A stretch of DNA of 45,588 nt from IMG/VR virus record IMGVR_UViG_2531839665_000023. The stretch is one strand, 5' to 3'. Under the pieces are notes generated by a model that was not told where the DNA came from, searched no databases, and was given only the letters and a program-made list of their open reading frames with translations. Every line of letters starts with the position of its first letter. Within the stretch, counting starts at the first letter, position 1. Of the stretch, positions 3,959 to 34,177 are shown one piece after another. The translations under genes and the position numbers were made by a program. The DNA comes from a virus (Duplodnaviria; Heunggongvirae; Uroviricota; Caudoviricetes).

Positions 3959-4485
3959 TTGCGTAACTCCGATAACTCGTTAAAGCGTTCCATAAACATC
4001 CCGTAGGCATGGCCCGGTGCCAGTGGAATCACGTTGAACATCTCTGTTGCCGGGATACCTTCCAGTACAGGCCAGAAAGAGCCATCATCAAGCCCGAGAT
4101 CGCGGCGTTCGGTTGCCAGCATGATGAGATCGGCATATTTCACGGGCGTACTCATAACTGGGGGTAATCCGTATTTCTCACGGATTACGGAGTCTATTTT
4201 TTCTTCCATTTGTTTATAGTCAGGAAGAAGGCGTTTCAGTGGTGCGGGAATGTCCTGGCAATACGCTTCTGTTGCATCATGCATTAACGCTTCAAAAGCA
4301 AATTCCTGCGGCACCAGCTGGCTGCAAAGAACCGCATGTTGGGCGACGCTGTAGAAGTGCGAAAGATGACCGGCAAAGCGACAGATATTTGAAAGGGAAA
4401 CCGCGATATCGTTAATATCGATGTCGTCTTTATTTATCCTGTCATAATAAAAATGCTTCCCGGAAAAAGTTTTAATAAATGACAT
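3949..4485 (-). CDS. HD-domain phosphohydrolase (YfdR-like)
   Basis: H...HD metal-binding motifs (SVAQHAVLCSQL, MHDATEAY); start trimmed to the ATG preceded by GGAGAA, giving 178 aa. Confidence 0.8.
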   Translation of the reverse strand: MSFIKTFSGKHFYYDRINKDDIDINDIAVSLSNICRFAGHLSHFYSVAQHAVLCSQLVPQEFAFEALMHDATEAYCQDIPAPLKRLLPDYKQMEEKIDSVIREKYGLPPVMSTPVKYADLIMLATERRDLGLDDGSFWPVLEGIPATEMFNVIPLAPGHAYGMFMERFNELSELRKCA

Positions 4486-4612
4486 TTTGTTCTCCACGTA
4501 TATGCGCTGCACCGCGCTGAGTTTGGGTAAAAGGAAGCCCTCACCATCCGGTGATTATTGAGTTAATTACGTTTCCATAAATGCCCCCGCAGGGGCATTT
4601 GCAGTAATGAAA

Positions 4613-5437
4613 TCAGGCGGTGAAAGTACCAATAAAGGTTTCTACTTTGCTGTCTTTGAATTTCTCAACAAGCAGATCACGAAATTCGTTAGCCATATCT
4701 TCCTGCACTGCTTCCAGCTGAATAATGCGCAGAACCAGTACAGGACGATCGCCAGTGATAATGCTGAGGCGTAATTTAAACGGACGTTCTTTCAGACCTT
4801 CAAACGGAACGCATTTAAATTCAAATGCCACTGGCATAATGTCTTTGGTCTTCGCTTCGACAGATTCCATCAGGGAGCGTTTGCCGCTGAAGTCATTATC
4901 TTCAAAATCAGCGGTCTGGTTTGCTTCAATCGTGATTTTACGGATTGCCGCAGCCGCTTTTGTTGCCTGAATGGCGTCACCATTAGCATCAAAGCCCACA
5001 AGGTAGTCGGCCCAGTCTTCAATCCATTCTGCCAGTGATTTCTGGGAGTTACGCTCGCCGTTAACAGACAACAGGGCAGAGAACGGTGCTGTCTTTTTCA
5101 GTTTGAGAGTGGCGGTGTTATCTGCGTGACCTGGTTCATCAATAGTACCCAGGTTAAGCACACTGACGGCACGCATATTATCAGCATCGATAAAGCAGCG
5201 GGTGCCTTCATCTGCAAGATCTTTAGAATAACGGGTAAAGTCATCGATGCTGGCAGTGGAAAGCGCGCCACGGAAACGGAAGCGATTTAAATTAAATTTT
5301 TCCAGATCATGAATGCGGAAATTCTCAGGCAATGCCACAGCATCGGCACCAATCTTACTGATAATTTCATTAACACCCTGAGCAGAAATAAGGGCATGGA
5401 TTTGATTAATTGCGGTTGCGTCTAAGTTCTGAGACAT
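4613..5437 (-). CDS. DUF2303-family phage early protein (YfdQ-like)
   Basis: 274 aa; size and sequence character match the CPS-53 YfdQ-type protein as recalled. Confidence 0.7.
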
Positions 5438-11181: not shown

Positions 11182-11868
11182 ATGAATAATCTGATGGTCA
11201 TTGATGGTATTGAAGTTCGTCGTGATGCTTATGGACGTTACAGCCTGAACGATCTGCATCGTGCCGCAGTAGCATCTGGTGCAAATGCCAGAACGAAGGA
11301 GCCGGGAAAGTTTCTTTCCAGCCAACAGACTGTTGAACTTGTTCGGGAATTGACCGATACCCAAAATTTGGGTGTCGGTCCGGTTAATACAGTTCGTGGT
11401 GGTCCTAAGCAGGGGAGTTATGTCTGCAAGGAACTGGTGTATGCCTATGCAATGTGGATCAGTCCGTCATTCCATCTGAAGGTGATCCGTACTTTCGATA
11501 TGGTAGTCAGTGCACCGGAAAAATTATCCGGGCAGGCTGCTGACAAGATGCAGGCAGGTGTGATTCTGCTGGACTTTATGCGTCGGGAGTTAAACCTGTC
11601 TAACTCATCTGTGCTTGGGGCCTGTCAGAAACTCCAGGAGGCTGTTGGCTTACCGAATCTGGCACCGCGCTATGCCATTGATGCTCCTGCTGATGCACAC
11701 GATGGCTCAAGTCGCCCCACGCTGTCGCTGAGTGCACTGCTGAGGCAGTATGGTATCCGCCTGACGGCTAATCAGGCATATCACCAGATGGTGAAGCTGG
11801 GGATCGTTGAACAACGCGAACGATACAGCCGTACCGCGATTAACAACATCAAAAATTCTGGTCGCTGA
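11182..11868 (+). CDS. KilA-N domain protein (antirepressor-like)
   Basis: N-terminal KilA-N-type sequence (YSLNDLHRA...VYAYAMWISPSFHLKVI). Confidence 0.75.
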   Translation: MNNLMVIDGIEVRRDAYGRYSLNDLHRAAVASGANARTKEPGKFLSSQQTVELVRELTDTQNLGVGPVNTVRGGPKQGSYVCKELVYAYAMWISPSFHLKVIRTFDMVVSAPEKLSGQAADKMQAGVILLDFMRRELNLSNSSVLGACQKLQEAVGLPNLAPRYAIDAPADAHDGSSRPTLSLSALLRQYGIRLTANQAYHQMVKLGIVEQRERYSRTAINNIKNSGR

Positions 11869-13000: not shown

Positions 13001-13753
13001 ATGAACCTTGAAGCCTTACCAAAATATTACTCCCCAAAATCTCCAAAATTGAGTGATGCCGCACCGGCGACAGGCTCAGGTGGTTTAACGATTACGGATG
13101 TGATGGCTGCGCAGGGGATGGTGCAGTCGAAAGCACCGCTTGGGTTTGCCTTATTCCTGGCAAAAGCTGGCGTTCAGGATCCTCAGTTTGCGATTGAAGG
13201 TCTGCTCAATTACGCGATGGCACTGGATAACCCGACATTGAACAAATTGAGTGAAGAAATCCGGTTACAGATCATCCCTTACCTTGTGAGTTTTGCCTTT
13301 GCTGATTATTCCAGGTCTGCGGCAAGTAAGGCTCGCTGTGAGCCTTGTGCTGGTACTGGATTTCATAATGTATTGCGCGAAGTGGTGAAATACTCCAGAA
13401 GCGGGGAGTCTGTTATCAAGGAAGAGTGGGTGAAGGAACTATGTCAGCATTGTCATGGTAAGGGAGAAGTCAGCACAGCGTGCAGAGGGTGTAAGGGTAA
13501 AGGTATTGTCCTGGATGAAAAAAGGACCCGGCTTCATGGCGCGCCTGTTTATAAGATTTGTGGGCGTTGCAATGGAAACCGGTTTAGTCGTTTACCAACG
13601 ACACTGGCGCGGTGTCATGTCCAGAAGCTGGTACCAGACCTGACTGATTATCAGTGGTACAAAGGATATGCAGATGTCATTGATAAACTGGTTACAAAGT
13701 GCTGGCAGGAAGAAGCATATGCTGAGGTGCAATTAAGAAAAGTGACGAGATAA
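13001..13753 (+). CDS. Q-like late-gene antiterminator
   Basis: Multiple CxxC pairs (CEPCAGTG, CQHCHGKG, CRGCKGKG, CGRCNGNR); last nin-region gene before the lysis region; start at ATG with GGAG upstream. Confidence 0.6.
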   Translation: MNLEALPKYYSPKSPKLSDAAPATGSGGLTITDVMAAQGMVQSKAPLGFALFLAKAGVQDPQFAIEGLLNYAMALDNPTLNKLSEEIRLQIIPYLVSFAFADYSRSAASKARCEPCAGTGFHNVLREVVKYSRSGESVIKEEWVKELCQHCHGKGEVSTACRGCKGKGIVLDEKRTRLHGAPVYKICGRCNGNRFSRLPTTLARCHVQKLVPDLTDYQWYKGYADVIDKLVTKCWQEEAYAEVQLRKVTR

Positions 13754-13784: not shown

Positions 13785-13813
13785 TTGCATTTTTCAAAAA
13801 ATATGGATAAAAT
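13785..13813 (+). promoter_or_regulatory. Candidate late promoter PR' (-35 TTGCAT, 17-nt spacer, -10 TAAAAT)
   Basis: Read directly downstream of the Q stop; the -10 overlaps the IS903 target duplication. Confidence 0.4.
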
Positions 13814-13817
13814 TCTT
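13809..13817. repeat. IS903 target-site duplication, left copy (AAAATTCTT)
   Basis: Identical 9-mer at 14875-14883. Confidence 0.85.
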
Positions 13818-14874
13818 GGCTTTGTTGAATAAATCGAACTTTTGCTGAGTTGAAGGATCAGATCACGCATCTTCCCGACAACGCAGACCGTTCCGTGGCA
13901 AAGCAAAAGTTCAAAATCACCAACTGGCCCACCTACAATAAAGCCCTCATCAACCGTGGCTCCATAACTTTCTGGCTGGATGATGAAGCTATTCAGGCCT
14001 GGTATGAGTCAGCAACACCTTCTTCACGAGGCAGACCTCAGCGCTATTCTGACCTTGCCATCACGACTGTGCTGGTCATTAAACGCGTATTCAGGCTGAC
14101 CCTGCGCGCTGCGCAGGGCTTTATTGATTCCATTTTTTCTCTGATGAACGTTCCGCTACGCTGCCCGGATTACAGCTGTGTCAGCAGGCGGGCAAAGTCG
14201 GTTAATGTCAGTTTCAAAACGTCCACCCGGGGTGAAATCGCACACCTGGTAATTGATTCCACCGGGCTGAAGGTCTTCGGTGAAGGCGAGTGGAAAGTCA
14301 AAAAGCATGGCCAGGAACGCCGCCGTATCTGGCGTAAGCTGCATCTCGCCGTTGACAGTAAAACACATGAAATCATCTGCGCTGACCTGTCGCTGAACAA
14401 TGTTACGGACTCAGAGGCCTTCCCCGGGTTAATCCGGCAAACCCACCGGAAAATCAGGTCAGCCGCCGCCGATGGCGCTTACGATACCCGGCTATGTCAC
14501 GATGAACTGCGGCGTAAGAAAATCAGCGCGCTTATCCCTCCCCGAAAAGGTGCGGGTTACTGGCCCGGTGAATATGCAGACCGTAACCGTGCAGTGGCTA
14601 ATCAGCGAATGACCGGGAGTAATGCGCGGTGGAAATGGACAACAGATTACAACCGTCGCTCGATAGCGGAAACGGCGATGTACCGGGTAAAACAGCTGTT
14701 CGGGGGTTCACTGACGCTGCGTGACTACGATGGTCAGGTTGCGGAGGCTATGGCCCTGGTACGAGCGCTGAACAAAATGACGAAAGCAGGTATGCCTGAA
14801 AGCGTGCGTATTGCCTGAAAACACAACCCGCTACGGGGGAGACTTACCCGAAATCTGATTTATTCAACAAAGCC
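13818..14874 (+). mobile_element. IS903 (IS5 family) insertion sequence, intact
   Basis: 1057 bp; 18-bp terminal inverted repeats GGCTTTGTTGAATAAATC at both ends; single transposase ORF; flanked by 9-bp direct repeats. Confidence 0.93.
13850..14818 (+). CDS. IS903 transposase (DDE, IS5 family)
   Basis: 322-aa track ORF entirely within the IS; sequence character matches IS903 transposase as recalled. Confidence 0.9.
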   Translation: MKDQITHLPDNADRSVAKQKFKITNWPTYNKALINRGSITFWLDDEAIQAWYESATPSSRGRPQRYSDLAITTVLVIKRVFRLTLRAAQGFIDSIFSLMNVPLRCPDYSCVSRRAKSVNVSFKTSTRGEIAHLVIDSTGLKVFGEGEWKVKKHGQERRRIWRKLHLAVDSKTHEIICADLSLNNVTDSEAFPGLIRQTHRKIRSAAADGAYDTRLCHDELRRKKISALIPPRKGAGYWPGEYADRNRAVANQRMTGSNARWKWTTDYNRRSIAETAMYRVKQLFGGSLTLRDYDGQVAEAMALVRALNKMTKAGMPESVRIA

Positions 14875-14883
14875 AAAATTCTT
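14875..14883. repeat. IS903 target-site duplication, right copy (AAAATTCTT)
   Basis: Identical to 13809-13817. Confidence 0.85.
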
Positions 14884-14925
14884 TCAACGATGGGCTTTAT
14901 ATACCCGACGTTAAGAAAAAGTAGA

Positions 14926-14950
14926 AAACCCGCTGATGAGCGGGTTTTTG
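14926..14950 (+). terminator. Intrinsic terminator (tR'-like)
   Basis: CCCGC-TGATGA-GCGGG followed by TTTTT. Confidence 0.7.
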
Positions 14951-15234
14951 TGCTTTAAATAGGGTAATAGAGATGTTGAATCTCATTCCGGGATTCATGT
15001 TTGTTTACTTATTATTTATCGGGTGACTTTGCCTGATGTTTAAAATGTTTTCTTCCAGTACTATGTCCCTAGATACAATGAGTCTGCATATTACATTATT
15101 AGCAGAGCTATTACGGTCAAAGTACAGCATAAGCTTTTAAAGCCAATCAACCAGTCATCAAGACAGACGGGGTTATTCATGAAAACTCTCCATGTTTGAT
15201 TCGATGGGGCCTGAAATTAAAGCTTTAATATAGC

Positions 15235-15447
15235 TCATGAAAGGTAAACATTGGCAGCTGAAGGGCCACGCAGACCATTTATCCGGCAAAATTCCACGCG
15301 TAATCCGGTGGTAATTTCTTCTGCATCGCGGAGATTGAGCGCTGAAACATGAAGCTGGACATCGATACGACCATCGGATGGGGTGATAAGACCCTTGCCG
15401 CTTTTGCCGTCAAAGGTTTTGACAATTCCTGTCATTTTACGGGACAA
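15235..15447 (-). CDS. cspF: Cold-shock-domain protein, CspF/CspH-like
   Basis: 70 aa; CSD fold sequence [21 protein letters not shown]...[13 protein letters not shown]. Confidence 0.85.
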
Positions 15448-15747
15448 AAAAATTCCTTAATACTGATAACTGGGCGCACTATACACACGTTCCTGAAGAA
15501 AGCTATAGTTTTTTGATGGGGTTGAAGATGGCTGGATGTCTAAAATAAACATTGCTTCATATGTTCAACTATGCGTTAATGATTGCGTCGGTTTGAAGAA
15601 CAGACGATATACGAAGTAGTTTACTAAAGCAGTTCTCATTTCAGGTGTTATTCACTTATTCCTTCTTTGAGTCTCTCCAATTAAGTACGAAGTCGTTTCT
15701 GTTATACAAGCCATTTATGCCGAAAGGCTCAAGTTAAGGAATGTAGA

Positions 15748-15963
15748 ATGTCAAATAAAATGACTGGTTTAGTAAAATGGTTTAACGCTGATAAAGGTTT
15801 TGGCTTTATTTCTCCTGTTGATGGTAGTAAAGATGTGTTTGTGCATTTTTCTGCGATTCAGAATGATAATTTTCGAACCTTATTTGAAGGTCAAAAGGTT
15901 ACCTTCTCTGTAGAGAGTGGTGCTAAAGGTCCTGCAGCAGCAAATGTCATAATTACTGATTAA
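15748..15963 (+). CDS. cspB: Cold-shock protein, CspB-like
   Basis: 71 aa; [21 protein letters not shown] with RNP motifs; csp-type leader with GCCGAAAGGC box before the Shine-Dalgarno. Confidence 0.9.
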
Positions 15964-16245
15964 AATTCATAGTTTGTCTGTATACGATAACGAAGAAGGC
16001 TGATGCCTGAGTGGAGATACAGACTGAGTGGTGAATATTGGATCTCTTTAATAAATAGTAAGGAGGTCCAATACATGAAACAATGGCCAGCATATTTGGC
16101 AATAACTTAATCAGGAAAAGTATGCTAACCATTGTGGTGAAGTGCAGGTTTGCTGCATGAATAGTTTTACAGCAGAAGCTAACTGCTGGCATAGCAAAAC
16201 AAAGTGCGTAAGTGGATGACTCCCACAAAAAGTACCACAATATTA

Positions 16246-16715: not shown

Positions 16716-16931
16716 ATGAAATCAATGGATAAGTTAACAACAGGTATCGCCTATGGCACATCGGCTGGTAATGCTGGTTTCTGGGCATTGCAGTTACTCG
16801 ATAAAGTAACTCCGTCACAGTGGGCTGCAATCGGTGTGCTGGGTAGTCTGGTTTTTGGCCTGCTGACGTATCTGACAAACCTTTATTTCAAGATTAAAGA
16901 AGACAAGCGTAAGGTTGCGAGAAGAGAGTAA
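16716..16931 (+). CDS. Class II pinholin, S21-like, with dual-start motif
   Basis: 71 aa; MKSMDKL dual start; two TM segments; strong resemblance to phage 21 S as recalled. Confidence 0.85.
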
Positions 16932-16935
16932 TCCA

Positions 16936-17487
16936 ATGACACAAGACTATGAACTGGTTGTGAAAGGAGTCCGCAATTTTGAGAATAAAGTGGCGGTAAC
17001 TGTAGCCTTACGGGACAAAAAACGCTTTGACGGTGAAATTTTTGACCTGGACATCTCGCTGGACCGTGTTGAAGGTGCCGCGCTGGAGTTTTATGAGGCA
17101 GCAGCCAGAATGAGAATCAGACAGGTATTCCTGGATGTTGCTGCCGGGTTATGTGTAGGGGATGAGCAGTCGCCGGAAAAGCGCCCCATAATTTTAGAGG
17201 CGCAGAATGTGTGGATAACCTACAAAGGAAAGCTACCGGGAAGAATTACTGGTTCTCTGAAGACGCCACCGACGGCATTGCGGTCAGAAAAAGATGATAT
17301 TGAATCGCCCATTGAAAAACTGGAGGGCAGCGTCGCTGATCTGAATAAAAAATTGTCGGTGCTGATCCCTTCTGAAGATGAAAAAAAACGCCGCGATGAG
17401 CAGTTTGCGGCGTTTTACGATTATTGCATTGAAGTTACTCGCAGGAATTTTGTGAAGATTTTTGAGGAGGGTAAATCTCTTCAGTAA
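16936..17487 (+). CDS. Hypothetical lysis-cassette protein (DUF1327/YdfR-like by position)
   Basis: ATG at 16936 directly after the holin stop; 183 aa; family assignment tentative. Confidence 0.55.
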   Translation: MTQDYELVVKGVRNFENKVAVTVALRDKKRFDGEIFDLDISLDRVEGAALEFYEAAARMRIRQVFLDVAAGLCVGDEQSPEKRPIILEAQNVWITYKGKLPGRITGSLKTPPTALRSEKDDIESPIEKLEGSVADLNKKLSVLIPSEDEKKRRDEQFAAFYDYCIEVTRRNFVKIFEEGKSLQ

Positions 17488-17695
17488 GCTTAATGGCGGA
17501 CGCTGCAATTAATTCAGGAAGGTCCGCAAGGTCATCTGTCAGTGGATATGATGAAAAATCGGCGGCAGTTCTGTTAAGAAGCGCTTTAACTAATTCCTTT
17601 TCCTTCTCCGGCAACAAGTTGATTAGAGCTACGACTGCTTGCCTGAGTGCGATTAAATCAGCAAAAGTTTGTTTTGGTAGATTTGTGTAATCCAT
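17435..17695 (-). CDS. Hypothetical acidic small protein, counter-oriented within lysis cassette
   Basis: 86 aa from the ATG at 17695 preceded by GAGGTG Shine-Dalgarno on the minus strand. Confidence 0.5.
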   Translation of the reverse strand: MDYTNLPKQTFADLIALRQAVVALINLLPEKEKELVKALLNRTAADFSSYPLTDDLADLPELIAASAIKLTEEIYPPQKSSQNSCE

Positions 17696-17808
17696 AGTCA
17701 CCTCTGTGTTTATCAGATTGACATCCTCCTCCCGCCAGTGCCCATCACTGGTGAGGTAAGATTTAACATATCCGGGGATTTGAAGCCGATAAATCCTGAT
17801 AAATATCC

Positions 17809-18836
<1,028 letters not shown>

Positions 18837-20762: not shown

Positions 20763-21124
20763 TCACCATAACTGCTAACCATTCTGACCATTTCACAAGT
20801 GACAGAGTCAATATCGTATTCTGTCACTGTCAGGCTAATACAGTACTGCAATTCAACTACAGCAATGCCTCGTATTTAGGTGAATTTACAATATCGTCCA
20901 GTTCGGATGCCGGCTGCATTTCTGAAGATAAGGCATTTCGGTTCGCGTATTTTCCCCTCATGCTCGTCAGTCCTGCGCGTAGTAAGAAACAGGACACTCA
21001 CACTAATTTGTGTGGGCATGCTGTGATGTCCTTCTGAATTATCCCCACGCCATTATGTAAAGCTCTGTTTCAGATGCTCGTCACGGTTGTCAGGCTGTCG
21101 GGTCCTCCCTGTGGGGGGCCCTGC

Positions 21125-21150
21125 CACGGGGCGGGAGCGTCGCGGAAAAA
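21125..21150. other. Candidate cos site (cosN-like GC-rich element followed by T-rich tract)
   Basis: GGGGCGGGAGCGTCGCGG resembles the lambda cohesive-end region GGGCGGCGACCTCGCGG as recalled; lies about 170 bp upstream of the small terminase gene. Confidence 0.35.
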
Positions 21151-21314
21151 GGCTAGTTTTTGCATTTTTATCGGCCACCATCATCTTTGCATCTTATTGA
21201 TTATTAATGGTTGTTTGTTTTTTGTATGTCGAATTGAGTGTTTTTTGTTCGACATCGAACGCGTTTTCTTAAAGTTGTTCGCACGATGCATGTTTAAAGC
21301 TCTCCGGAGGAAAT

Positions 21315-21806
21315 ATGGATCATGAGTTGAAAAACCTGGTGCTGAATATTAATCAACTGGCGGCTTTATCTGGTCTGCACCGCCAGACTGTCGTGGCAAG
21401 ACTGAAAAACATTCGTCCCGCTGGTGGACATGACAAACTCAAGCTATACCGGTTGACCGATATTCTGACTGAATTTATGGGGTTACCACCGCCGGTTGCT
21501 GAGGGCGAAATGGATCCACATGAACGCAAAGCCTGGTATCAGTCTGAACGTGAGCGTCTTAAGTTCGAACAGGAAACGGCACAACTCATTCCGGCCAGTG
21601 ATGTCAGACGGGAGTTTGCCATCTGGGCAAAAGCGGTCGTGCAGGTGCTGGAGACATTACCGGATATTCTGGAACGTGACTGCGGCCTGCAGCCTGCCGC
21701 TGTGAGCCGTGTTCAGTCCATTATTGATGATCTGCGCGATCAGATAGCCCTGCGGGTGACCGAAGCAGGTGCGGATGATGAGGAGGAATTACAGCAGGAG
21801 GAGTAA
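21315..21806 (+). CDS. Terminase small subunit
   Basis: 163 aa; N-terminal HTH; acidic C-terminus; immediately upstream of and overlapping terL. Confidence 0.65.
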   Translation: MDHELKNLVLNINQLAALSGLHRQTVVARLKNIRPAGGHDKLKLYRLTDILTEFMGLPPPVAEGEMDPHERKAWYQSERERLKFEQETAQLIPASDVRREFAIWAKAVVQVLETLPDILERDCGLQPAAVSRVQSIIDDLRDQIALRVTEAGADDEEELQQEE

Positions 21807-23908
21807 TGCTGAATCAGGAAACCGCAAAGGCAGCACGAACCGATTCAGGTTATATCCTTCGCGCACCGAGACGAATGCGGGTTGCTGATGCCGTTGCTCA
21901 GTATATGCGGGTGCCCATGGGGGCCGGGAACTCAGTCCCGTGGGATCCGCTGGTGGCACCGTATGTTATTGAGCCGATGAACTGCCTGGCCTCGCGTGAA
22001 TACGATGCAGTGATATTTGTTGGCCCGGCACGAACTGGCAAGACTATCGGCCTGATTGACGGCTGGGTGATTTACAACGTGATTTGCGATCCTGCTGATA
22101 TGCTGATCATTCAGATGACGGAGGAAAAAGCCCGCGAACACTCCAAAAAACGACTTGCCAGAACGTTTCGCGTCAGCCCGGAAGTGGTCAGTCGCCTGAG
22201 TCCGAACAAAAATGACAACAACGTTTATGACAGAACATTCCTTGCTGGCAACTACCTGAAAATCGGCTGGCCGTCAGTCAATATCATGTCCTCATCAGAT
22301 TATAAATGCGTGGCGCTGACGGATTATGACCGTTTTCCGGAAGATATTGATGGCGAGGGGGATGCCTTCTCTCTTGCCTCAAAACGTACCACCACATTTA
22401 TGTCCAGTGGTATGACGCTGGTGGAGAGTTCCCCCGGCAGGGATGTGAAGGATGTGAAATGGCGACGGACTTCACCGCATGAGGCTCCACCAACCACGGG
22501 GATACTGTCGCTCTATAACCGTGGCGATCGCCGTCGCTGGTACTGGCCCTGTCCACACTGTGGTGAGTATTTTCAGCCCTGCGGCGATGCGGTTGCTGGT
22601 TTCCGTGATATTGCCGATCCCGTGCTGGCAAGTGAGGCGGCTTATATTCAGTGTCCTTCCTGTTCAGGACGGATTATGCCTGAACAAAAACGTGAGCTGA
22701 ACGGACGTGGGGTCTGGTTGCGGGATGGTGAATCCATCAATGCGGATGGCAGTCGTTATGGTGATCCCCGACGCTCACGTATTGCGTCATTCTGGATGGA
22801 GGGTCCGGCAGCTGCTTACCAGACACTCTCGCAACTCGTTTACAAACTGCTTGCTGCAGAACAGGAATACGAGACAACCGGAAGTGAAGAAACACTCAAG
22901 ACGGTTATCAATACCGACTGGGGATTACCTTATCTTCCCCGTGCCAGCATGGAGCAACGAAAAAGTGAACTGCTTGAGCAGCGGGCAGAGCCAGTTCCTT
23001 CCCGCAGTGTGCCGGATGGCGTTAATTTCCTGGTGGCGACAGTTGATGTGCAGGCGGGACGTCATCGCCGTTTTGTGGTTCAGGTAACGGGCTATGGCAG
23101 CCGTGGCGAACGCTGGATTATTGATCGTTACAACATCACGCAGTCATTGCGCGGTGACAGCGACGGGGAGAGCCAGCGAATTGATCCGGCCAGCTATCCG
23201 GAAGACTGGGATGTCCTGCTGACGGATGTTTTTCATAAAAGCTGGCCGCTGGCCTCCGATCCTTCTCAACAAATGCGACTGATGGCAATGGCGGTGGACT
23301 CCGGCGGTGAAGACGGAGTCACTGATAATGCCTATAAATTCTGGCGTCGTTGCCGTCGTGATGGCCTTGGTAAACGTATTTACCTGTTTAAGGGCGACAG
23401 CATCCGGCGCGCAAAACTGATCACCCGTACATTCCCTGATAACACCGGACGAACGGGCCGACGGGCGCAGGCCGCAGGTGATGTACCGCTCTGGCTTCTT
23501 CAGACGGATGCCCTGAAAGACCGGGTGAATAACGCGTTATGGCGTGACTCGCCAGGTCCCGGCTATGTGCATTTCCCTGACTGGCTGGGGAGCTGGTTTT
23601 ACGACGAACTGACGTATGAAGAGCGGAGCAGTGACGGGAAATGGAGTAAGCCGGGTCGCGGTGCCAACGAAGCTTTTGACCTGATGGTGTATGCCGAGGC
23701 TCTGGTCATTCTGCATGGATACGAAAAGATCCGCTGGCCGGATGCACCGGAGTGGGCGAGCCGGGAAACCTGGCTGGAGTGTGTCCCGGACAGTACCGAA
23801 CCGTCACCCACACCGGAACCGGTATCCACGCCTGTTAAAAAACAAAAACGGAAGAAAACAGTAACTGACGATGTTAACCCCTGGCTGACTTCCGGAGGAT
23901 GGTTATGA
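21806..23908 (+). CDS. Terminase large subunit, lambda GpA-like
   Basis: 700 aa; Walker A-like GPARTGKT; zinc-ribbon CPHCG...CPSC; GpA-type architecture. Confidence 0.9.
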   Translation: MLNQETAKAARTDSGYILRAPRRMRVADAVAQYMRVPMGAGNSVPWDPLVAPYVIEPMNCLASREYDAVIFVGPARTGKTIGLIDGWVIYNVICDPADMLIIQMTEEKAREHSKKRLARTFRVSPEVVSRLSPNKNDNNVYDRTFLAGNYLKIGWPSVNIMSSSDYKCVALTDYDRFPEDIDGEGDAFSLASKRTTTFMSSGMTLVESSPGRDVKDVKWRRTSPHEAPPTTGILSLYNRGDRRRWYWPCPHCGEYFQPCGDAVAGFRDIADPVLASEAAYIQCPSCSGRIMPEQKRELNGRGVWLRDGESINADGSRYGDPRRSRIASFWMEGPAAAYQTLSQLVYKLLAAEQEYETTGSEETLKTVINTDWGLPYLPRASMEQRKSELLEQRAEPVPSRSVPDGVNFLVATVDVQAGRHRRFVVQVTGYGSRGERWIIDRYNITQSLRGDSDGESQRIDPASYPEDWDVLLTDVFHKSWPLASDPSQQMRLMAMAVDSGGEDGVTDNAYKFWRRCRRDGLGKRIYLFKGDSIRRAKLITRTFPDNTGRTGRRAQAAGDVPLWLLQTDALKDRVNNALWRDSPGPGYVHFPDWLGSWFYDELTYEERSSDGKWSKPGRGANEAFDLMVYAEALVILHGYEKIRWPDAPEWASRETWLECVPDSTEPSPTPEPVSTPVKKQKRKKTVTDDVNPWLTSGGWL

Positions 23909-24117
23909 ACCAGAATGATATCGAAGCCATGATTCAGCGTTATACGGAAGCTGAAATGGCGGTGCTGGACGGAAAATCCGTCACCTTTAATGGTCAGCAG
24001 ATGACCATGGAAAACTTATCTGAGATCCGGCAGGGACGGCAGGAGTGGGAGCGCCGCCTTGCGGCTCTGATTACACGACGACGGGGGCATCCCGGGTACC
24101 GGCTTGCGAGGTTCTGA
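23905..24117 (+). CDS. Head-tail joining protein, gpW-like
   Basis: 70 aa; ATG overlaps terL stop; GGAGGA Shine-Dalgarno; position and size as lambda W. Confidence 0.6.
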   Translation: MNQNDIEAMIQRYTEAEMAVLDGKSVTFNGQQMTMENLSEIRQGRQEWERRLAALITRRRGHPGYRLARF

Positions 24118-25625
24118 TGGCAATTCTTGATGATGTGATTGGCGTTTTTTCACCAGGATGGAAAGCGGCAAGGCTGCGTTCCCGTGCGGTGATCCAGGCT
24201 TATGAGGCCGTAAAAACGACGCGGACACACAAAGCCCGGCGGGAAAACCGAACTGCCGACCAGTTAAGCCAGTACGGGGCCGTGTCGTTACGTGAGCAGG
24301 CCCGTTACCTTGATAACAACCACGATCTGGTCATTGGTGTATTTGACAAGCTGGAAGAACGGGTGGTGGGGAAAAACGGGATTATTGTCGAGCCACATCC
24401 GGTATTACGCAATGGGGCCATTGCCCGTGATCTGGCAGCGGAGATACGCACCCGATGGAGTGAATGGTCTGTCAGTCCGGAAGTCACCGGGCAGTTTACC
24501 CGTCCGATGCTGGAACGTCTGATGTTGCGTACCTGGCTGCGCGATGGTGAGGTGTTTGCCCAGATGGTTTCCGGGCGCATAAACAGCCTGACGCCTTCTG
24601 CCGGTGTTCATTTCTGGCTGGAGGCGCTCGAGCCGGACTTTATTCCCATGACCAGTGATGAGAGCAACAGGCTGAATCAGGGCGTGTTTGTTGATGACTG
24701 GGGGCGTCCCGAAAAATATCTGGTGTATAAAAGCCGTCCCGTATCCGGACGGCAGATGGAAACCAAAGAAGTGGATGCAGAGCGAATGCTGCATCTTAAA
24801 TTTGTTCGCCGTCTGCACCAGATGCGCGGGACGTCTTTGTTGTCCGGTGTGCTGATCCGCCTCAGTGCCCTGAAAGAGTATGAAGATTCTGAGCTGACTG
24901 CAGCAAGGATCGCCGCTGCTCTGGGGATGTACATCCGGAAAGGCGACGGGCAGAGCTATGAACCGGATGGTAATGGCAGCAAGGATAAGGAACGCGAGCT
25001 TACCATTCAGCCAGGCATTATTTACGACGATCTGAAACCCGGCGAAGAAATCGGAATGGTGAAGTCGGATCGCCCCAATCCTAATCTTGAAACTTTTCGT
25101 AATGGTCAGTTGCGTGCCGTGGCGGCGGGCAGTCGTCTGAGTTTTTCCAGTACAGCGCGCAACTATAACGGCACTTACAGCGCCCAGCGTCAGGAGCTGG
25201 TTGAATCCACTGATGGCTACCTGATCCTGCAGGACTGGTTTATTGGTGCCGTCACCCGCCCGATGTATCGTGCCTGGCTGAAACAGGCTGTGGCATCCGG
25301 TGTTATCAGGCTACCCCGCGATCTTGATCGTTCTTCACTGTATACCGCGGTGTATTCCGGACCGGTGATGCCGTGGATTGACCCTGTTAAGGAGGCTGAG
25401 GCCTGGAAAATTCAGATTCGTGGTGGAGCGGCGACAGAATCAGACTGGGTACGTGCAGGTGGTCGTAATCCGGATGATGTCAAACGTCGGCGCAAGGCCG
25501 AAATTGATGAAAACCGCAAGCTGGATCTGGTATTTGATACCGATCCGGCCAGTGATAAAGGAGGCAGCAGTGCCGCAACGAAACGACAGGAGCCGCAGCA
25601 CACCGACGACCAGTCCGAAGAATAA
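24117..25625 (+). CDS. Portal protein
   Basis: 502 aa from the ATG overlapping W stop; position between W and protease/capsid gene. Confidence 0.8.
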   Translation: MAILDDVIGVFSPGWKAARLRSRAVIQAYEAVKTTRTHKARRENRTADQLSQYGAVSLREQARYLDNNHDLVIGVFDKLEERVVGKNGIIVEPHPVLRNGAIARDLAAEIRTRWSEWSVSPEVTGQFTRPMLERLMLRTWLRDGEVFAQMVSGRINSLTPSAGVHFWLEALEPDFIPMTSDESNRLNQGVFVDDWGRPEKYLVYKSRPVSGRQMETKEVDAERMLHLKFVRRLHQMRGTSLLSGVLIRLSALKEYEDSELTAARIAAALGMYIRKGDGQSYEPDGNGSKDKERELTIQPGIIYDDLKPGEEIGMVKSDRPNPNLETFRNGQLRAVAAGSRLSFSSTARNYNGTYSAQRQELVESTDGYLILQDWFIGAVTRPMYRAWLKQAVASGVIRLPRDLDRSSLYTAVYSGPVMPWIDPVKEAEAWKIQIRGGAATESDWVRAGGRNPDDVKRRRKAEIDENRKLDLVFDTDPASDKGGSSAATKRQEPQHTDDQSEE

Positions 25626-25638
25626 TTCCTGGTTCAGG

Positions 25639-27597
25639 ATGCAGGCAGGTCACCAGAGTGACGCGGATATTTATATTTATGACGAGATTGGTTTCTGGGG
25701 TGTTACGGCGAAGCAGTTTATCAGTGATCTGAATGCACTGGGCGATATCACCCACATTAATCTCCATATTAATTCACCGGGTGGCGATGTCTTTGAAGGC
25801 ATCGCCATTTTTAATGCACTGAAAACACATGGTGCGTCCATTACCGTTTATGTCGACGGTGTGGCGGCGTCAATGGCGTCGGTCATTGCGATGGTGGGAA
25901 ACCCGGTCATTATGCCGGAAAACTCCTTCATGATGATTCATAAACCATTTGGCTTTACGGGCGGTGATGCGGAGGACATGCGCACCTATGCCGACCTGCT
26001 CGATAAAGTTGAGGCGGTTCTGTTACCCGCTTATGCACAGAAAACCGGGAAAACCACCGATGAAATTGCTGCCATGCTGGCGGATGAGACCTGGATGTCC
26101 GGTGCCGAATGTCTGGCACAGGGATTTGCTGATCAGGTGACACCAGCCGTTAAGGCAATGGCATGTATTCAGTCAAAACGTACAGAGGAATTTAAAAAGA
26201 TGCCGGAATCCATTCGAAATATGATTACTCCGCCACGCAACAGTGCTCCACGCGTACAGGATGATGGACCTGCAGCCTCCCGGACGCCAGTGCAGGCAGC
26301 AGCACCCGTGGTGGATGAAAACAGCATCCGTGCGCAGGTCCTGGCAGAGCAAAAAGCGCGTGTAAACGGTATTAATGATCTGTTTGCCATGTTTGGTGGG
26401 CGTTATCAGTCGCTGCAGGCTCAGTGTCTTGCCGATCCTGAATGTTCGCTGGAGCAGGCCCGCGAAAAGCTGTTGAACGAGATGGGGCGCGAGTCCACGC
26501 CATCCAATAAAAATACCCCGGCTCATATTTATGCCGGTAACGGTAATTTTGTGGGGGACGGGATCCGCCAGGCGCTGATGGCGCGCGCCGGGTTTGAAAA
26601 AACCGAACGTGATAATGTCTACAACGGGATGACCCTGCGTGAATATGCCCGTATGTCACTGACTGAACGTGGTATTGGTGTTTCCAGTTATAACCCGATG
26701 CAGATGGTCGGTGCGGCGTTCACACACAGTACGTCTGACTTCGGTAATATTCTGCTGGATGTTGCGAACAAAGCCATTCTGCAGGGCTGGGAAGATGCCC
26801 CTGAAACCTATGAACAGTGGACGCGGAAAGGTCAGTTGTCTGATTTTAAAATTGCCCATCGTGTGGGTATGGGGGGCTTCAGTGCTCTGCGTCAGGTGCG
26901 TGAAGGGGCAGAATATAAATACGTCACCACCGGAGATAAACAGGCCACTATTGCACTGGCGACCTATGGCGAGCTGTTCAGTATCACCCGTCAGGCCATT
27001 ATCAATGATGATCTGAATATGCTGACCGATGTCCCGATGAAGCTGGGCCGTGCGGCGAAATCCACTATTGCCGATCTGGTTTATGCCATTCTGACGTCTA
27101 ACCCGAAAATCTCCACAGATAATGTAAGTCTGTTCGATAAAGCGAAACATGCAAACGTACTGGAGAGCGCGGCAATGGACGTGGCATCGCTGGATAAAGC
27201 CCGCCAGTTGATGCGCGTTCAGAAAGAGGGTGAGCGTCATCTGAATATTCGTCCTGCGTTCGTACTGGTACCGACGGCGATGGAGTCTGTTGCTAACCAG
27301 GTCATTCGCTCCTCAAGTGTCAAGGGGGCTGACATTAACGCCGGTATTATTAACCCGGTGAAAGATTTTGCGACCGTTATTGCAGAGCCTCGTCTTGATG
27401 ATAACAGCCAGACCACCTTCTACCTGGCTGCGTCCAAAGGCTCCGATACGATTGAAGTGGCTTATCTCAACGGTGTGGATACGCCATATATTGATCAGAT
27501 GGAGGGCTTCAGTGTGGATGGCGTGACAACGAAAGTACGTATTGACGCTGGTGTTGCGCCAGTTGATCACCGCGGCCTGGTGAAATGTACGGCGTAA
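25639..27597 (+). CDS. ClpP/S49-like head maturation protease fused to major capsid protein
   Basis: 652 aa; N-terminal protease region (HINSPGGDVFEG...SMAS), coiled middle, C-terminal capsid-like region. Confidence 0.8.
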   Translation: MQAGHQSDADIYIYDEIGFWGVTAKQFISDLNALGDITHINLHINSPGGDVFEGIAIFNALKTHGASITVYVDGVAASMASVIAMVGNPVIMPENSFMMIHKPFGFTGGDAEDMRTYADLLDKVEAVLLPAYAQKTGKTTDEIAAMLADETWMSGAECLAQGFADQVTPAVKAMACIQSKRTEEFKKMPESIRNMITPPRNSAPRVQDDGPAASRTPVQAAAPVVDENSIRAQVLAEQKARVNGINDLFAMFGGRYQSLQAQCLADPECSLEQAREKLLNEMGRESTPSNKNTPAHIYAGNGNFVGDGIRQALMARAGFEKTERDNVYNGMTLREYARMSLTERGIGVSSYNPMQMVGAAFTHSTSDFGNILLDVANKAILQGWEDAPETYEQWTRKGQLSDFKIAHRVGMGGFSALRQVREGAEYKYVTTGDKQATIALATYGELFSITRQAIINDDLNMLTDVPMKLGRAAKSTIADLVYAILTSNPKISTDNVSLFDKAKHANVLESAAMDVASLDKARQLMRVQKEGERHLNIRPAFVLVPTAMESVANQVIRSSSVKGADINAGIINPVKDFATVIAEPRLDDNSQTTFYLAASKGSDTIEVAYLNGVDTPYIDQMEGFSVDGVTTKVRIDAGVAPVDHRGLVKCTA

Positions 27598-27620
27598 ACG
27601 TCGCAGACAACAACTCTGAT

Positions 27621-27641
27621 GGCCCGTAAGGGCTTTTTTTG
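27621..27641 (+). terminator. Possible weak terminator after capsid gene
   Basis: GCCC-GTAA-GGGC followed by TTTTTTT. Confidence 0.45.
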
Positions 27642-27683
27642 TACCTGAAATCAGCCCCTGAACGGGGCTGTGCGGAGACAGTT

Positions 27684-28007
27684 ATGGCAAAGAATTTTGT
27701 AGAAGAAGGAAAAACGGTGGCGATTGTTGCCAGTGCAGCCATCAGCAGCGGAGATCTGGTGCAGGTGGGTGATGTTTTTGCGGTGGCGCTGACCGATATT
27801 CCACAGGGAGAAACAGGCGACGGCATAACCGAAGGTGTGTTTATGCTGCCTAAGCTGAAAACGGATGACATGAAAACGGGTAAGAAGGTTTATATGAAGT
27901 CAGGAAAAGTTCAGCTGACTAACAGCGGCTCTGATCCGCTGGTCGGGGTTGTCTGGGCAGATGCCGGAACCAGTGCAGAAGAAGTGCCGGTAAAACTCAA
28001 TGTCTGA
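27684..28007 (+). CDS. DUF2190-like head protein (decoration/structural)
   Basis: 107 aa from ATG with GGAGAC Shine-Dalgarno; position after capsid gene. Confidence 0.55.
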   Translation: MAKNFVEEGKTVAIVASAAISSGDLVQVGDVFAVALTDIPQGETGDGITEGVFMLPKLKTDDMKTGKKVYMKSGKVQLTNSGSDPLVGVVWADAGTSAEEVPVKLNV

Positions 28008-28275
28008 TCCCTTTTCCCGGCTGGCAGCGCGTATGGATGCGATCACGGTCAGAAAGATGGGAAAGACAGCCTCGATTAATGATGTCGATATGACTGTGAT
28101 CCCGGGAGAAACACTGGCAGAGCTGAATGCTCTGTCCGGACCTGCGGTCTCTCTGGTGGTGTTTTCTTCGGGATACCGCCCACGGCGCGGGGATCGCGTT
28201 GTTTATGACGGACAACAATGGACGGTCACACGGCATGAACGCTTTAACGGTAAGCCAATGATCTTTATTGAGTAA
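28000..28275 (+). CDS. Head-tail adaptor-like protein
   Basis: 91 aa; position between head genes and Z. Confidence 0.5.
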   Translation: MSDPFSRLAARMDAITVRKMGKTASINDVDMTVIPGETLAELNALSGPAVSLVVFSSGYRPRRGDRVVYDGQQWTVTRHERFNGKPMIFIE

Positions 28276-28286
28276 AGAGGTGTGGG

Positions 28287-28865
28287 ATGAAGGGGCTTGA
28301 GAATGCCATCCGCAATCTGAACAGCCTTGATACCCGTATGGTGCCACAGGCCAGCGCATGGGCGATAAACCGTGTGGCACAGAAAGCGGTCTCGGTTGCC
28401 ACCCGGCAGGTTGCCGGGAATACCGTTGCGGGAGATAACCAGGTGAAAGGGATCCCCCTGAAACTGGTACGTCAGCGTGTCCGGGTGTTTAAAGCCAGTC
28501 CGTCAGGAAAAATGACGGCCAGGATCCGCGTTAACCGGGGCAATCTGCCCGCCATTAAGCTGGGGACAGCCCGGGTCAGACTGGCCCGGCGTGGTGGAAA
28601 ACTGCAGTACCGTGGCAGTGTGCTGAAGGTGGGTAAATATCTTTTCCGGGATGCGTTTATTCAGCAACTGGCGAATGGTCGCTGGCATGTGATGCGACGT
28701 ATTGATGGCAAAAATCGTTACCCCATTGATGTGGTGAAAATCCCGCTGTCCGGACCGCTGACACAGGCATTTGAAGATGCCCGCGACCACATCATTGCTG
28801 CGGAAATGCCGAAACAGCTGGGGTATGCACTGAAACAACAACTGAGGTTATGGCTGACCCGATGA
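28287..28865 (+). CDS. Z: Minor tail protein Z-like
   Basis: 192 aa, same length as lambda Z; position before U. Confidence 0.7.
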   Translation: MKGLENAIRNLNSLDTRMVPQASAWAINRVAQKAVSVATRQVAGNTVAGDNQVKGIPLKLVRQRVRVFKASPSGKMTARIRVNRGNLPAIKLGTARVRLARRGGKLQYRGSVLKVGKYLFRDAFIQQLANGRWHVMRRIDGKNRYPIDVVKIPLSGPLTQAFEDARDHIIAAEMPKQLGYALKQQLRLWLTR

Positions 28866-29263
28866 ACCGACATACACAAATCCGCCAGGCCGTACTGGCA
28901 CGCCTTCGGGAACAGTGTGGAGACAGCGCCACGTTTTTTGACGGGCTTCCGGCATTTATTGATGCGCAGGAACTGCCTGCCGTGGCGGTGTGGCTGAGTG
29001 ATGCTCAGTACACCGGAAAAATGACGGATGAAGATGACTGGCAGGCTGTTCTGCATATTGCCGTCTTCATCCGGGCACAGGCACCGGATTCAGAGCTGGA
29101 TATGTGGATGGAGAGCACCATTTTCCCTGCCCTGAATGATGTACCGGCACTTTCCGGACTCATCGACACCCTGATCCCACTCGGTTTTAACTATCAACGT
29201 GATAATGAGATGGCCACCTGGGCGATGGCGGAAATCACGTACCAGATCACGTACACGAATTAA
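28862..29263 (+). CDS. U: Tail terminator protein U
   Basis: 133 aa from ATG overlapping Z stop; aligns with lambda U as recalled (ATFFDG...PAVAV...DSELD.WMES). Confidence 0.8.
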   Translation: MNRHTQIRQAVLARLREQCGDSATFFDGLPAFIDAQELPAVAVWLSDAQYTGKMTDEDDWQAVLHIAVFIRAQAPDSELDMWMESTIFPALNDVPALSGLIDTLIPLGFNYQRDNEMATWAMAEITYQITYTN

Positions 29264-29273
29264 GGAGGTGGTA

Positions 29274-30017
29274 ATGACCACACCAAATCCACTGGCAAAG
29301 ACGAAAGGTGCGGGGACGACGTTCTGGATGTATACCGGCAACGGCGATGCGTTTGCGAACCCTTTGTCGGACACTGACTGGCTGCGTCTTGCGATGGTGA
29401 AGGATCTGCAACCTGGCGAAATGACCGCTGATGCAGAAGATGACACTTATCTCGATGATGAAGATGCAGACTGGAAAACGACAACCCAGGGGCAGAAATC
29501 CGTCGGTGATACTTCGGCGACGCTGGCCTGGCGTCCGGGTGACAGCGGGCAGAAAAAACTGGTTCAGTTGTTCGACTCCGGTGAAGTCTGCGCGTTTCGT
29601 ATCAAATATCCCAACGGTACTGTTGATGTTTTCCGTGGCTGGCTGAGTTCACTGGGTAAAACCATTGCCTCAAAAGACGTGATGACCCGCACAGTGAAAA
29701 TCAGCGGTGTGGGGCGTCCGTATCTGGCAGAAGAAGGCACTGAAACCGTGGGCGTTACCGGGCTGACGGTGGCACCGGCATCTGCCAGTGTAAAAGTGGG
29801 AGCAACCACCACGCTGACCTTTACAGTAAAACCTGACGGAGCCAGTGACAAAGCGATCAGTGTGCATTCGACAGATCCACAGACTGCCACGGTGACCCTG
29901 AACGGGCTTGTGGCCACGGTGAAAGGCGTGAAGCAGGGCAGTGTCAGCATTGTGGGCATGACTTCTGACGGCGATTTTGTGGCAGTGGCTACGGTGGCTG
30001 TCAGCGCCGCAGGTTAA
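29274..30017 (+). CDS. V: Major tail protein V with C-terminal Ig-like domain
   Basis: 247 aa; AAGGAGG Shine-Dalgarno; C-terminal Big_2-like segment (VTGLTVAPASASVKVGATTTLTFTV). Confidence 0.85.
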   Translation: MTTPNPLAKTKGAGTTFWMYTGNGDAFANPLSDTDWLRLAMVKDLQPGEMTADAEDDTYLDDEDADWKTTTQGQKSVGDTSATLAWRPGDSGQKKLVQLFDSGEVCAFRIKYPNGTVDVFRGWLSSLGKTIASKDVMTRTVKISGVGRPYLAEEGTETVGVTGLTVAPASASVKVGATTTLTFTVKPDGASDKAISVHSTDPQTATVTLNGLVATVKGVKQGSVSIVGMTSDGDFVAVATVAVSAAG

Positions 30018-30077
30018 CAGGACGATACTCATCATTTGCCCCGATTATCCGGGGCTTTTTTGCAGGTGGAGAACATG

Positions 30078-30464
30078 ATGTTTCTGAAACAGGGCACGTT
30101 TAATTATGAAAAGCAGTCCGTGGTGCTCAGTGAGCTGTCCGGGCTGCAGAGAATTGAATATCTGGCGTTTGTTCAGCAGCGAACGGCAAAGTTTGATGCC
30201 GAAGAGGGAGAACTGCCGGAGGCTGAACGACAGATTGCTTTTCTGCGGATGGGGATGGATATCAATGCCTGGCTGGTTTCCCGCTCACTGTGGAATGCGG
30301 ATCAGTCTAAGGATGTAGAGACGCTTTGCGCATCCGTTATTACAACATGGTCGTATGATGCCCTGGGTGCGGGGGCGGAGATGGTTCTGTCGCTGAGCGG
30401 TATGGGGACCATTGATAATGCCGGGGATGATGAGCATGAGGCGCTGACGCCGGAAAAGTCCTGA
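30078..30464 (+). CDS. G: Tail assembly chaperone G
   Basis: MFLKQ...VVLSELSGLQRIEYLAF matches lambda G as recalled. Confidence 0.85.
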   Translation: MFLKQGTFNYEKQSVVLSELSGLQRIEYLAFVQQRTAKFDAEEGELPEAERQIAFLRMGMDINAWLVSRSLWNADQSKDVETLCASVITTWSYDALGAGAEMVLSLSGMGTIDNAGDDEHEALTPEKS

Positions 30465-30802
30465 CGCGGGAAATGCAGTTTGTCATGCGGCTTGCCCGGG
30501 AGTTCCGACGGGCAGACTGGCGGCGGATGCTGTCGGAAATGTCGGCCACTGAGCTTGGTGAGTGGGGCGATTATTTCCGGATGCAGAGCTTCAGTGATGT
30601 GTGGATGGATGCGCAGTTTGCCTCGCTGAAGGCATTGATCGTGAGAATGGTGTCCGGTAGCAGTGATGCTGCGGTGGCTGATTTCAGCCTTTTACCGGAA
30701 GAGAACGGGATACCGGAGCGAACGGACGAAGAACTGATGCATCTTGGGGAAGGTATTTCCGGAGGTGTGCGTTATGGACCAGATAGCCAACCTGGTCATT
30801 GA
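30078..30802 (+). CDS. T: Tail assembly chaperone GT, predicted -1 frameshift fusion
   Basis: T frame is open from 30440 and is -1 relative to G; candidate slip site GGAAAAG at 30452-30458. Confidence 0.55.
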
Positions 30803-33800: not shown

Positions 33801-33839
33801 GCCCGTGATGGTGGTCGGTTAAGTGGAGCATATCGGTAA
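30774..33839 (+). CDS. H: Tail tape measure protein H
   Basis: 1021 aa from ATG with GGAGGT Shine-Dalgarno; long coiled-coil-rich protein with Gly-rich C-terminal region. Confidence 0.9.
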   Translation: MDQIANLVIDLGIDAAEFKNEIPRIKNLLNGAASDAERSSARMQRFMERQTQAARQTMQAASSAATAASVHAQTVEKSAQAHERMAREVEQTRQRMEALSQKMREEQAQAMALAEAQDKAAAAFYRQIDSVKQASAGLQELQRIQQQIRQARNSGGIGQQDYLALISEVTAKTRVLTQAEAEATRQKVAFIRQLKEQATRQNLSSSELLRAKAAQLGVSSAAEVYIRKMEQAGKATHSLGLKSAAARQEIGVLIGELVRGNLGALRGSGITLANRAGWIDTLMSPKGMMLGGVIGGIAAAVYGLGKAWYDGQKEGEEFNRQLSLTGHYAGVTAGQLWTLSRAISGNGITQHAAAGALAQVVGSGAFRGNDIGMVARAAAQMERSVGQSVSDTISQFKRLKDDPVNAAKALDNELHFLTATQLEQIRVLGDQGRSSDAARIAMSALAEETGRRTADIDNNLNALGSTLKYLSDLWSRFWDAAMNIGREDSLDEQIAALQEKVSRAKRLPWTASSSQVEYDQQRLNDLQEKKRQKDLQDAKEQAERNYQEQQKRRNAENAALNRMNESEAARHQREIARINSMQYADQAVRDAAIQRENERYEKALASGKKKTRETRNDEATRLLLQYSQQQAQVEGQIAAARQSAGIATEKMTEAHKQLLALQQRISDLDGKKLTTDEKSVLARKDELIQALMLLDVKQQELQKQTALNDLKKKTIQLTSQLAEEERAQRQQHDLDIATVGMGDQQRQRYQVQLSLRQKNQQQLEQLRRDSEQKGTYNTDDYRKAEQALTESLNRQLNENRRYWQQLEVVQGNWKNGVLRAFQDFTVDADNTAGTAEQVFSSAFSNMGNGLATFVTTGKLNFKSFTSSVLSDMAKILAQATMMKSIKGIGSVLGFDLSSLSLNANGGIYQSADLSRYSGTVVNRPTFFAFAKGAGVMGEAGPEAILPLRRGADGKLGVVADIGGSGMAMFAPQYNIEINNDGTNGQIGPAALKVVYDLGKKAAADFMQQQARDGGRLSGAYR

Positions 33840-34168: not shown

Positions 34169-34177
34169 GAGTCTCTG

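Follow-up and report, generated by a model that had tools for sequence, protein, structure and literature searches.

An intact IS903B lies in the putative late promoter PR' of a lambdoid Escherichia coli prophage and is predicted to silence its lysis and virion genes

Analyzing a 45,588-nt stretch of viral DNA (IMG/VR record IMGVR_UViG_2531839665_000023; hereafter "the window"), we found an intact copy of the insertion sequence IS903B (1057 bp; positions 13818–14874, + strand) lying within a sequence homologous to the late promoter PR' of phage lambda and oriented in the same direction as late transcription. With the element at this site, Q-dependent late transcription is very probably lost and the lysis and virion genes would hence stay off, a mechanism that we infer from the homology of the interrupted cassette to that of lambda. 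Below, we describe the prophage, the element and the uninterrupted allele, and then evaluate the identity of the interrupted site, the expected consequences of the insertion and the alternatives to them.

The prophage in the window is lambdoid and belongs to E. coli: the opening few hundred bases have a match in virtually all E. coli genomes. Its left part runs from the integrase through early genes, repressor and cro, replication genes, a nin-like region, a DUF968 gene and Q to IS903B, and the element is followed by a terminator, cspF (minus strand), cspB, ynfU (minus strand), holin, a ydfR-like gene, lysozyme and spanin, with cspI, gnsB and then the terminase, portal, capsid and tail genes making up the right part. 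The first late genes, which would depend on read-through of this terminator (16716–18836, + strand), are, from their Pfam matches, the holin gene essQ, the ydfR-like gene, the lysozyme gene rrrQ and the spanin gene rzpQ, and the terminase and virion genes (21315–44287) come after these lysis genes. The stretch between the right IS end and the probable cos site is 99.6% identical to phage 2H10. For gene integrity, the annotated genes of a related prophage (L001) and of 2H10 were translated and compared with the window, revealing that the integrase, excisionase, repressor, cro, replication genes, Q and lysis genes, as well as the terminase, portal, protease-capsid, tail fibres and all tail genes, are full length and free of stop codons. 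The one exception is a KilA-N gene between the replication genes and Q, in which the loss of 1 bp from an A-run shifts the frame (228 aa, as compared with 269 aa for the relative); the prophage may thus have a lesion besides the IS. For the KilA-N homolog in 2H10, the annotation says no more than transcriptional regulator. Lambda can dispense with its genes between replication and Q (PMC10695390).

The element itself is complete. An earlier note, made from the sequence alone, had described an intact IS of 1057 bp with 18-bp inverted repeats and a 9-bp duplication, and every one of these figures proved exact at 13818–14874. The terminal inverted repeats GGCTTTGTTGAATAAATC (IRL at 13818–13835, IRR at 14857–14874) pair at 18 of 18 positions, and this 18-mer has only two copies in the window, both at the IS ends, even when two mismatches are allowed (0.01 expected from shuffled sequences). 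Flanking the repeats is the 9-bp target-site duplication AAAATTCTT, with the left copy at 13809–13817, that is at promoter positions -11 to -3, and the right copy at 14875–14883, abutting the right end of the IS. The sole long ORF of the element is open throughout and encodes an intact transposase of the DDE type on the + strand, read either from a TTG (13850–14818, 322 aa) or from a GTG (13895–14818, 307 aa). Its product matches PF13737, PF01609 and the IS5-family NCBIfam model NF033579, the last with a score of 358 bits against a cut-off of 140.

Over all 1057 bp the element is 100% identical to many copies on enterobacterial plasmids, which carry the RefSeq label "IS5-like element IS903B family". 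Because of this match to annotated IS903B copies we name it IS903B, not the Tn903 copy of IS903; the plain "IS903" of the earlier note was right for the element group but not for the precise name. In structure it shows no difference from IS903/IS903B (IS5 family, IS903 group), sharing the 1057-bp length, the perfect 18-bp inverted repeats, the 9-bp duplication and the single DDE transposase, and only the insertion site is new. The perfect target duplication, together with the complete identity of the element to circulating copies, points to a recent transposition event.

An allele lacking the insertion had been suggested as something to seek in related strains, and it exists. Having removed the IS and one copy of the repeat in silico, we searched 5,426 complete E. 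coli genomes for the resulting 1034-bp IS-free sequence and recovered it at 100% identity in six of them and at 99.9% identity in CFT073 and many other E. coli. All matches are annotated as ydfT (antitermination protein) – cspF, and the same sequence is 99.7% identical to phage 2H10. In these empty-site alleles AAAATTCTT is present as a single copy. The MFDS1006657 prophage, which occupies the same chromosomal site adjoining yjjG, is colinear with the window at 98–99% identity, and the two blocks of this alignment have precisely the 9 duplicated bases in common, at the position of the IS. We rejected an assembly artefact as the origin of the insertion, given that the 9-bp duplication is perfect and the empty site exact.

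The interrupted allele was seen only in the window across the collections searched. None of the 5,426 complete E. coli genomes carries the IS at the same position, and PR' of this type is uninterrupted in 1,925 of the approximately 1,960 E. coli genomes that carry it. The exact left-junction sequence is absent from GTDB representative genomes, and a gapped pattern that accepted any IS903 end up to 30 bp past the promoter spacer returned no match in GTDB representatives or JGI metagenome contigs. Several candidates for further disruptions were rejected. Two partial matches to the PR' core proved to be one frameshift-ridden assembly and one mosaic junction, with no IS in either, and two E. coli genomes that apparently shared the insertion instead carry IS903B elsewhere between Q and the holin gene, downstream of the terminator. 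In the literature we found no direct report of promoter mapping for quuQ/ydfT or of IS903 in a late promoter.

The gene immediately upstream of the interrupted site (13001–13753, + strand, 250 aa) encodes a Q antiterminator of the ydfT/quuQ type that belongs to the Q-lambda family. Its product matches Pfam PF03589 at 176 bits, the family assigned to Q-lambda in the structural paper (PMC9388147), and retrieves the solved Q-lambda structure chain 7UBM_Q with an E value of 1.9e-36. It is 34% identical to lambda Q from end to end, and it is 100% identical to the ydfT product of the related prophage (L001). A 48-aa insertion in the window protein contains two extra CxxCxGxG motifs. The zinc-finger motifs had raised the suspicion of a phage-82-type Q, which was rejected because both the Pfam and the solved-structure searches give the Q-lambda family.

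To evaluate the interrupted site we aligned the IS-free sequence with lambda PR'. From -35 to +9 the two align without gaps and are identical at 32 of 44 positions, the lambda row reading TTGACT-TATTGAATAAAATTGGG-TAAATT-TGACTC-AACGATGGG and the window row TTGCAT-TTTTCAAAAAATATGGA-TAAAAT-TCTTTC-AACGATGGG. The putative -35 hexamer TTGCAT (13785–13790, + strand) thus aligns to lambda TTGACT, and the putative -10 hexamer TAAAAT (13808–13813, + strand) to lambda TAAATT, with the same 17-bp spacer between them and the same 6-bp gap after the -10. The spacer TTTTCAAAAAATATGGA (13791–13807, + strand) is the presumed Q-binding element (QBE), placed there by the rule for the Q-lambda family. At the displaced start (A 14886 = +1), AACGATGGG is identical to lambda PR' from +1 to +9 and occurs once in the window, at 14886–14894 (+ strand); by homology to lambda, its first six bases, AACGAT, would be a sigma70-dependent pause element, with GGG next to it. 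The lambda AACGAT, which occupies +1 to +6, serves as the -10-like element of a sigma70-dependent pause and the next GGG is discriminator-like (PMC4005639).

Conservation among relatives agrees with this assignment. The comparison covered 2H10, SfV, Ayreon, PhiR42_1, Tritos, HannyBb, an Stx2c phage, a Salmonella phage, K-12 Qin and two further E. coli prophages, and the -35 hexamer is invariant in all 11. Also kept are the spacer (nearly invariant), A-11 and T-7 of the -10 and AACGATGGGCTTT, and the pause element is invariant throughout. The -10 takes the forms TAAAAT, TAAGAT or TAGGAT, always with A-11 and T-7, and the 6 bp leading from there to +1 are freely variable. As a consensus promoter, TTGCAT-17-TAAAAT matches at 3 of 6 positions in the -35 and 8 of 12 overall, even as it is aligned with lambda PR' and conserved; neither in the window nor in the IS-free allele did a consensus promoter scan pick out the PR' hexamers, so the promoter assignment rests on homology. 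The ungapped alignment to lambda PR', the invariant spacing of the pause element and the Q-lambda-family Q directly upstream support the earlier guess that TAAAAT is the -10 of PR', and with it the reading that the interrupted sequence is the late promoter.

Downstream of the start lies the intrinsic terminator tR' (14918–14956, + strand), with a core stem AAAACCCGCT/AGCGGGTTTT at 14925–14948, a GATG loop and then a T-run. The stem is a perfect 10-bp inverted repeat, the hairpin follows about 40 nt further downstream, and the terminator lies about 65 nt from the start. A 75-nt RNA over tR' folds at -27.8 kcal/mol (z = -5.1), and the hairpin is kept in relatives; in phages SfV and Ayreon it bears a terminator annotation. 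The terminator alignment is conserved but holds no double compensatory changes, so covariation contributes no support. An Rfam search with the short PR'–tR' RNA assigned no family, the only match being Leu_leader at 20.8 bits, well under threshold. Since the terminator is symmetrical, it probably also ends the convergent cspF/ynfS transcripts. The IS was said to lie between the Q-like gene and a tR'-like terminator, and this placement stands, with Q upstream and the hairpin and T-run downstream. Phage-to-phage homology stops just past tR', and the DNA beyond is mosaic; because Q, PR', the pause site and tR' are all kept in relatives and similarity ends after the terminator, we take the four to form one conserved unit, as expected of a late control cassette.

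Within this cassette, with A 14886 as +1, the IS falls between -3 and -2. The -35, the spacer with its presumed QBE and the -10 remain complete to the left of the element, and the start site, pause element and tR' are shifted 1066 bp rightward (the IS plus the 9-bp duplicate), such that the -10 and spacer are no longer contiguous with the start and pause element. The duplication was claimed to overlap the -10, and indeed AAAATTCTT covers the last five bases of TAAAAT. The further claim, that the promoter is parted from its start and from the Q-utilisation site (qut), needs amending in its second half: the start is displaced by 1066 bp, but qut is split rather than removed whole, because the QBE of the Q-lambda family lies between -35 and -10 (PMC4914094) and would therefore remain on the promoter side. 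The right junction reads CAAAAT-TCTTTC-A and thereby retains A-11, T-7, the discriminator and the start, along with the pause element and tR'. It has no -35, as the hexamers at 16–18 bp (AATCTG, AAATCT and GAAATC) match the consensus at 0–1 of 6 positions, and it has no TG extension. The consensus scan called no new promoter at either junction.

Taken together, these features suggest that an intact IS903B transposed into the late control region of a complete lambdoid prophage adjoining yjjG and that it would disable the Q switch. Lambdoid Q proteins have their QBE within the -35 to -10 interval and engage polymerase only while sigma70 holds it at the pause element, so that both elements are required (PMC4914094; PMC9388147). 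In Q-lambda-type systems, Q has to sit on its DNA site within the promoter while the polymerase is halted at the pause element some 16 nt further on; with the binding half and the pause half 1 kb apart, Q would be unable to load, and since loading requires the two to be adjacent, Q-dependent late transcription would fail in cis. Transcripts from the left half of PR' would read into the IS with the same polarity as the transposase gene, and any transcript arriving at tR' would end there. On induction the lysis and virion genes would then be expected to remain off, with immunity, early genes, Q, and the cold-shock and other accessory genes predicted to be unaffected. In lambda, all late genes require Q, and its knockdown costs 4–5 logs of plating efficiency (PMC10695390).

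Against this reading we weighed three others. The most probable of them, though very unlikely in our estimate, is that late transcription survives, through a hybrid promoter at the right junction or through transposase read-through and escape from tR', giving a productive but weaker lytic cycle. The transposase gene does point toward tR', intrinsic terminators leak so that some Q-independent late expression is possible, and the right junction keeps A-11, T-7, the discriminator and the start; yet the same junction has neither a -35 at the proper distance nor a TG extension and was not called, the presumed QBE is missing on that side, which argues against Q loading (PMC4914094), and a polymerase arriving from 1 kb upstream is usually free of sigma70 by then. 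Less probable again is that the true late promoter and qut lie elsewhere, for example nearer the holin gene and downstream of cspF/cspB, in which case the IS would be near-neutral and would hit an accessory promoter/terminator region. Such a location could account for the silence of the consensus scan at TTGCAT-17-TAAAAT and for the roughly 1.8 kb, including two convergent genes, between the PR' site and the holin gene. However, every functional element of the site has its base-for-base homolog in lambda PR', the site directly follows a Q-lambda-family gene, the Q–PR'–tR' block is a conserved unit whereas the DNA after tR' is mosaic, and the scan offers no better candidate between 14960 and 16715; Q-modified polymerase, moreover, traverses kilobases and terminators (PMC9388147).

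The least probable of the three, which we regard as highly improbable, holds that the prophage was already non-functional and that the IS is one neutral hit in decaying DNA. Its evidence is the 1-bp deletion that frameshifts the KilA-N gene, but the genes from integrase through tail are full length against both the related prophage and 2H10, the near-identity to 2H10 runs from the IS to the probable cos site, and the frameshifted gene has a 2H10 homolog annotated as no more than a transcriptional regulator and corresponds to a region that lambda can spare (PMC10695390). We therefore retain the reading in which IS903B separates the two halves of the Q switch.

Two further consequences of that split may be considered. 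Lambda PR' is constitutively active in lysogens (PMC7547250), and the intact left half of PR' faces the IS in such a way that transcription from it would read the transposase in sense, with a predicted new start no more than a few bases to either side of the IS end, such that the promoter could be captured as a transposase source. We consider it unlikely, if somewhat less so than the alternatives above, that this capture makes the copy an over-expressed source of transposase that raises IS903B activity and that the approximately 65-nt PR'–tR' RNA, which corresponds to lambda 6S RNA and to StxS, is lost. As for its persistence, the allele might have been selected for locking in a non-lethal prophage that keeps its immunity and cold-shock genes.

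Comparison with known systems places the finding. The Q – PR' – qut – 6S RNA – tR' cassette of lambda shares with the window a Q-lambda-family Q, the promoter geometry, AACGATGGG at +1 to +9 and a terminator before the late genes, and from this likeness a constitutive short transcript is expected here (PMC4005639, PMC7547250). It differs in that the window's Q carries the 48-aa insertion with two extra zinc-knuckle motifs, the spacer (presumed QBE) differs at 6 of 17 bases, lambda's TTGACT at -7 to -2 is unconserved, tR' lies about 65 nt from the start as against 194 nt in lambda, some 1.8 kb of accessory genes (cspF, cspB, ynfU) stand between tR' and the holin gene, and the cassette is physically split by the IS. 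K-12 Qin (ydfT/quuQ – cspF – cspB – essQ) has the same Q–PR'–tR'–cspF–cspB–holin module, with the same promoter, pause element and terminator and a predicted start at NC_000913.3 position 1,642,422 (minus strand), but there PR' is uninterrupted and the prophage is defective through large deletions elsewhere. Phage 2H10 likewise carries the module, at 99.6–99.7% identity in the region and with PR' uninterrupted. The cassette type is thus common to Qin and to several phages that are viable.

A host-resident IS can disable a lambdoid prophage while its accessory genes stay, as in DLP12 and the O157 Sp prophages, and in most described IS-inactivated prophages coding genes are interrupted. In the window, by contrast, the element hit a 12-bp regulatory interval and no phage gene is broken. 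The IS element, the cassette type and the disabling of prophages by IS elements are all already known, such that the site is new and the mechanism is not, and IS903B in PR' is in this respect an ordinary example of prophage disabling. If the reading is true, this is a natural single-lesion "late-off" prophage that has all its genes, its Q switch cut between the DNA-binding half and the pause half, and it would explain in advance how prophage-finder software could score such a prophage as "intact" despite no phage release. It would also give a naturally occurring system in which to ask if a protein of the Q-lambda type can act when its binding and pause sites are 1 kb apart. More generally, an IS in a short non-coding control region may domesticate a prophage without leaving a pseudogene, and gene-based integrity scoring would miss such cases.

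The ends of the linear genome of 2H10, a sequenced related phage, map to 20661/20662 of the window, which is probably the cos site. The window prophage is a mosaic, since its head and proximal tail module (terminase to gpM, 20979-34175) shows no relationship to the 2H10 module and instead shares 98-99% identity with the prophage in E. coli strain MFDS1006657. In the window prophage, the zinc-ribbon 'arm' of the antiterminator Q contains an insertion of 48 aa relative to lambda Q (13343-13486; Q residues ~115-162), which brings two extra, DnaJ-like CxxCxGxG motifs and a PF00684 match just under threshold, and which is common to the ydfT/quuQ-type Q proteins of viable phages.

Upstream of Q, the KilA-N domain gene (11182-11868) carries a frameshift relative to the related E. 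coli prophage L001, such that one A is missing from an A-run (A6 to A5, near 11854-11858) and the product is 228 rather than 269 aa long. Either the prophage has a genuine second lesion here, or the missing A reflects a sequencing error in the homopolymer.

Within the terminal repeats of IS903B, the 9-mer TTGAATAAA occurs at 13825-13833 (in the left repeat, IRL) and, as its reverse complement, at 14859-14867 (in the right repeat, IRR), and the same 9-mer is present in the spacer of lambda PR' (positions -27 to -19), the location of the lambda Q-binding element. We interpret this match as probably due to chance in AT-rich sequence. Inside the transposase gene of the element, a terminator-like, GC-rich hairpin followed by CTTTATT (14100-14118, sense strand) might attenuate transcripts entering IS903B from PR'. 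Beyond the element, the tR' hairpin (14925-14948) has an A-run on one side and a T-run on the other and can therefore be read as a terminator on both strands, so that tR' probably also terminates the convergent cspF/ynfS transcripts, with cspF (15235-15447) lying convergent to late transcription; a second, weaker candidate terminator is found at 14977-14997. Further into this cold-shock region, the Rfam cspA thermoregulator (RF01766) matches 15587-16026 with 157 bits (cut-off 78), spanning the long 5' UTR and the beginning of the prophage cspB.

Similar insertions of IS903B were found in two further E. coli genomes, OW848980 and Ecol_732 (4301-5269 of the stretch L002 and 4306-5274 of the stretch L003), where the element has the same orientation as in the window and likewise sits between Q and holin, at positions downstream of tR' that are other than the one seen here. 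The AT-rich accessory-gene region between Q and holin seems to be a repeated target of IS903B.
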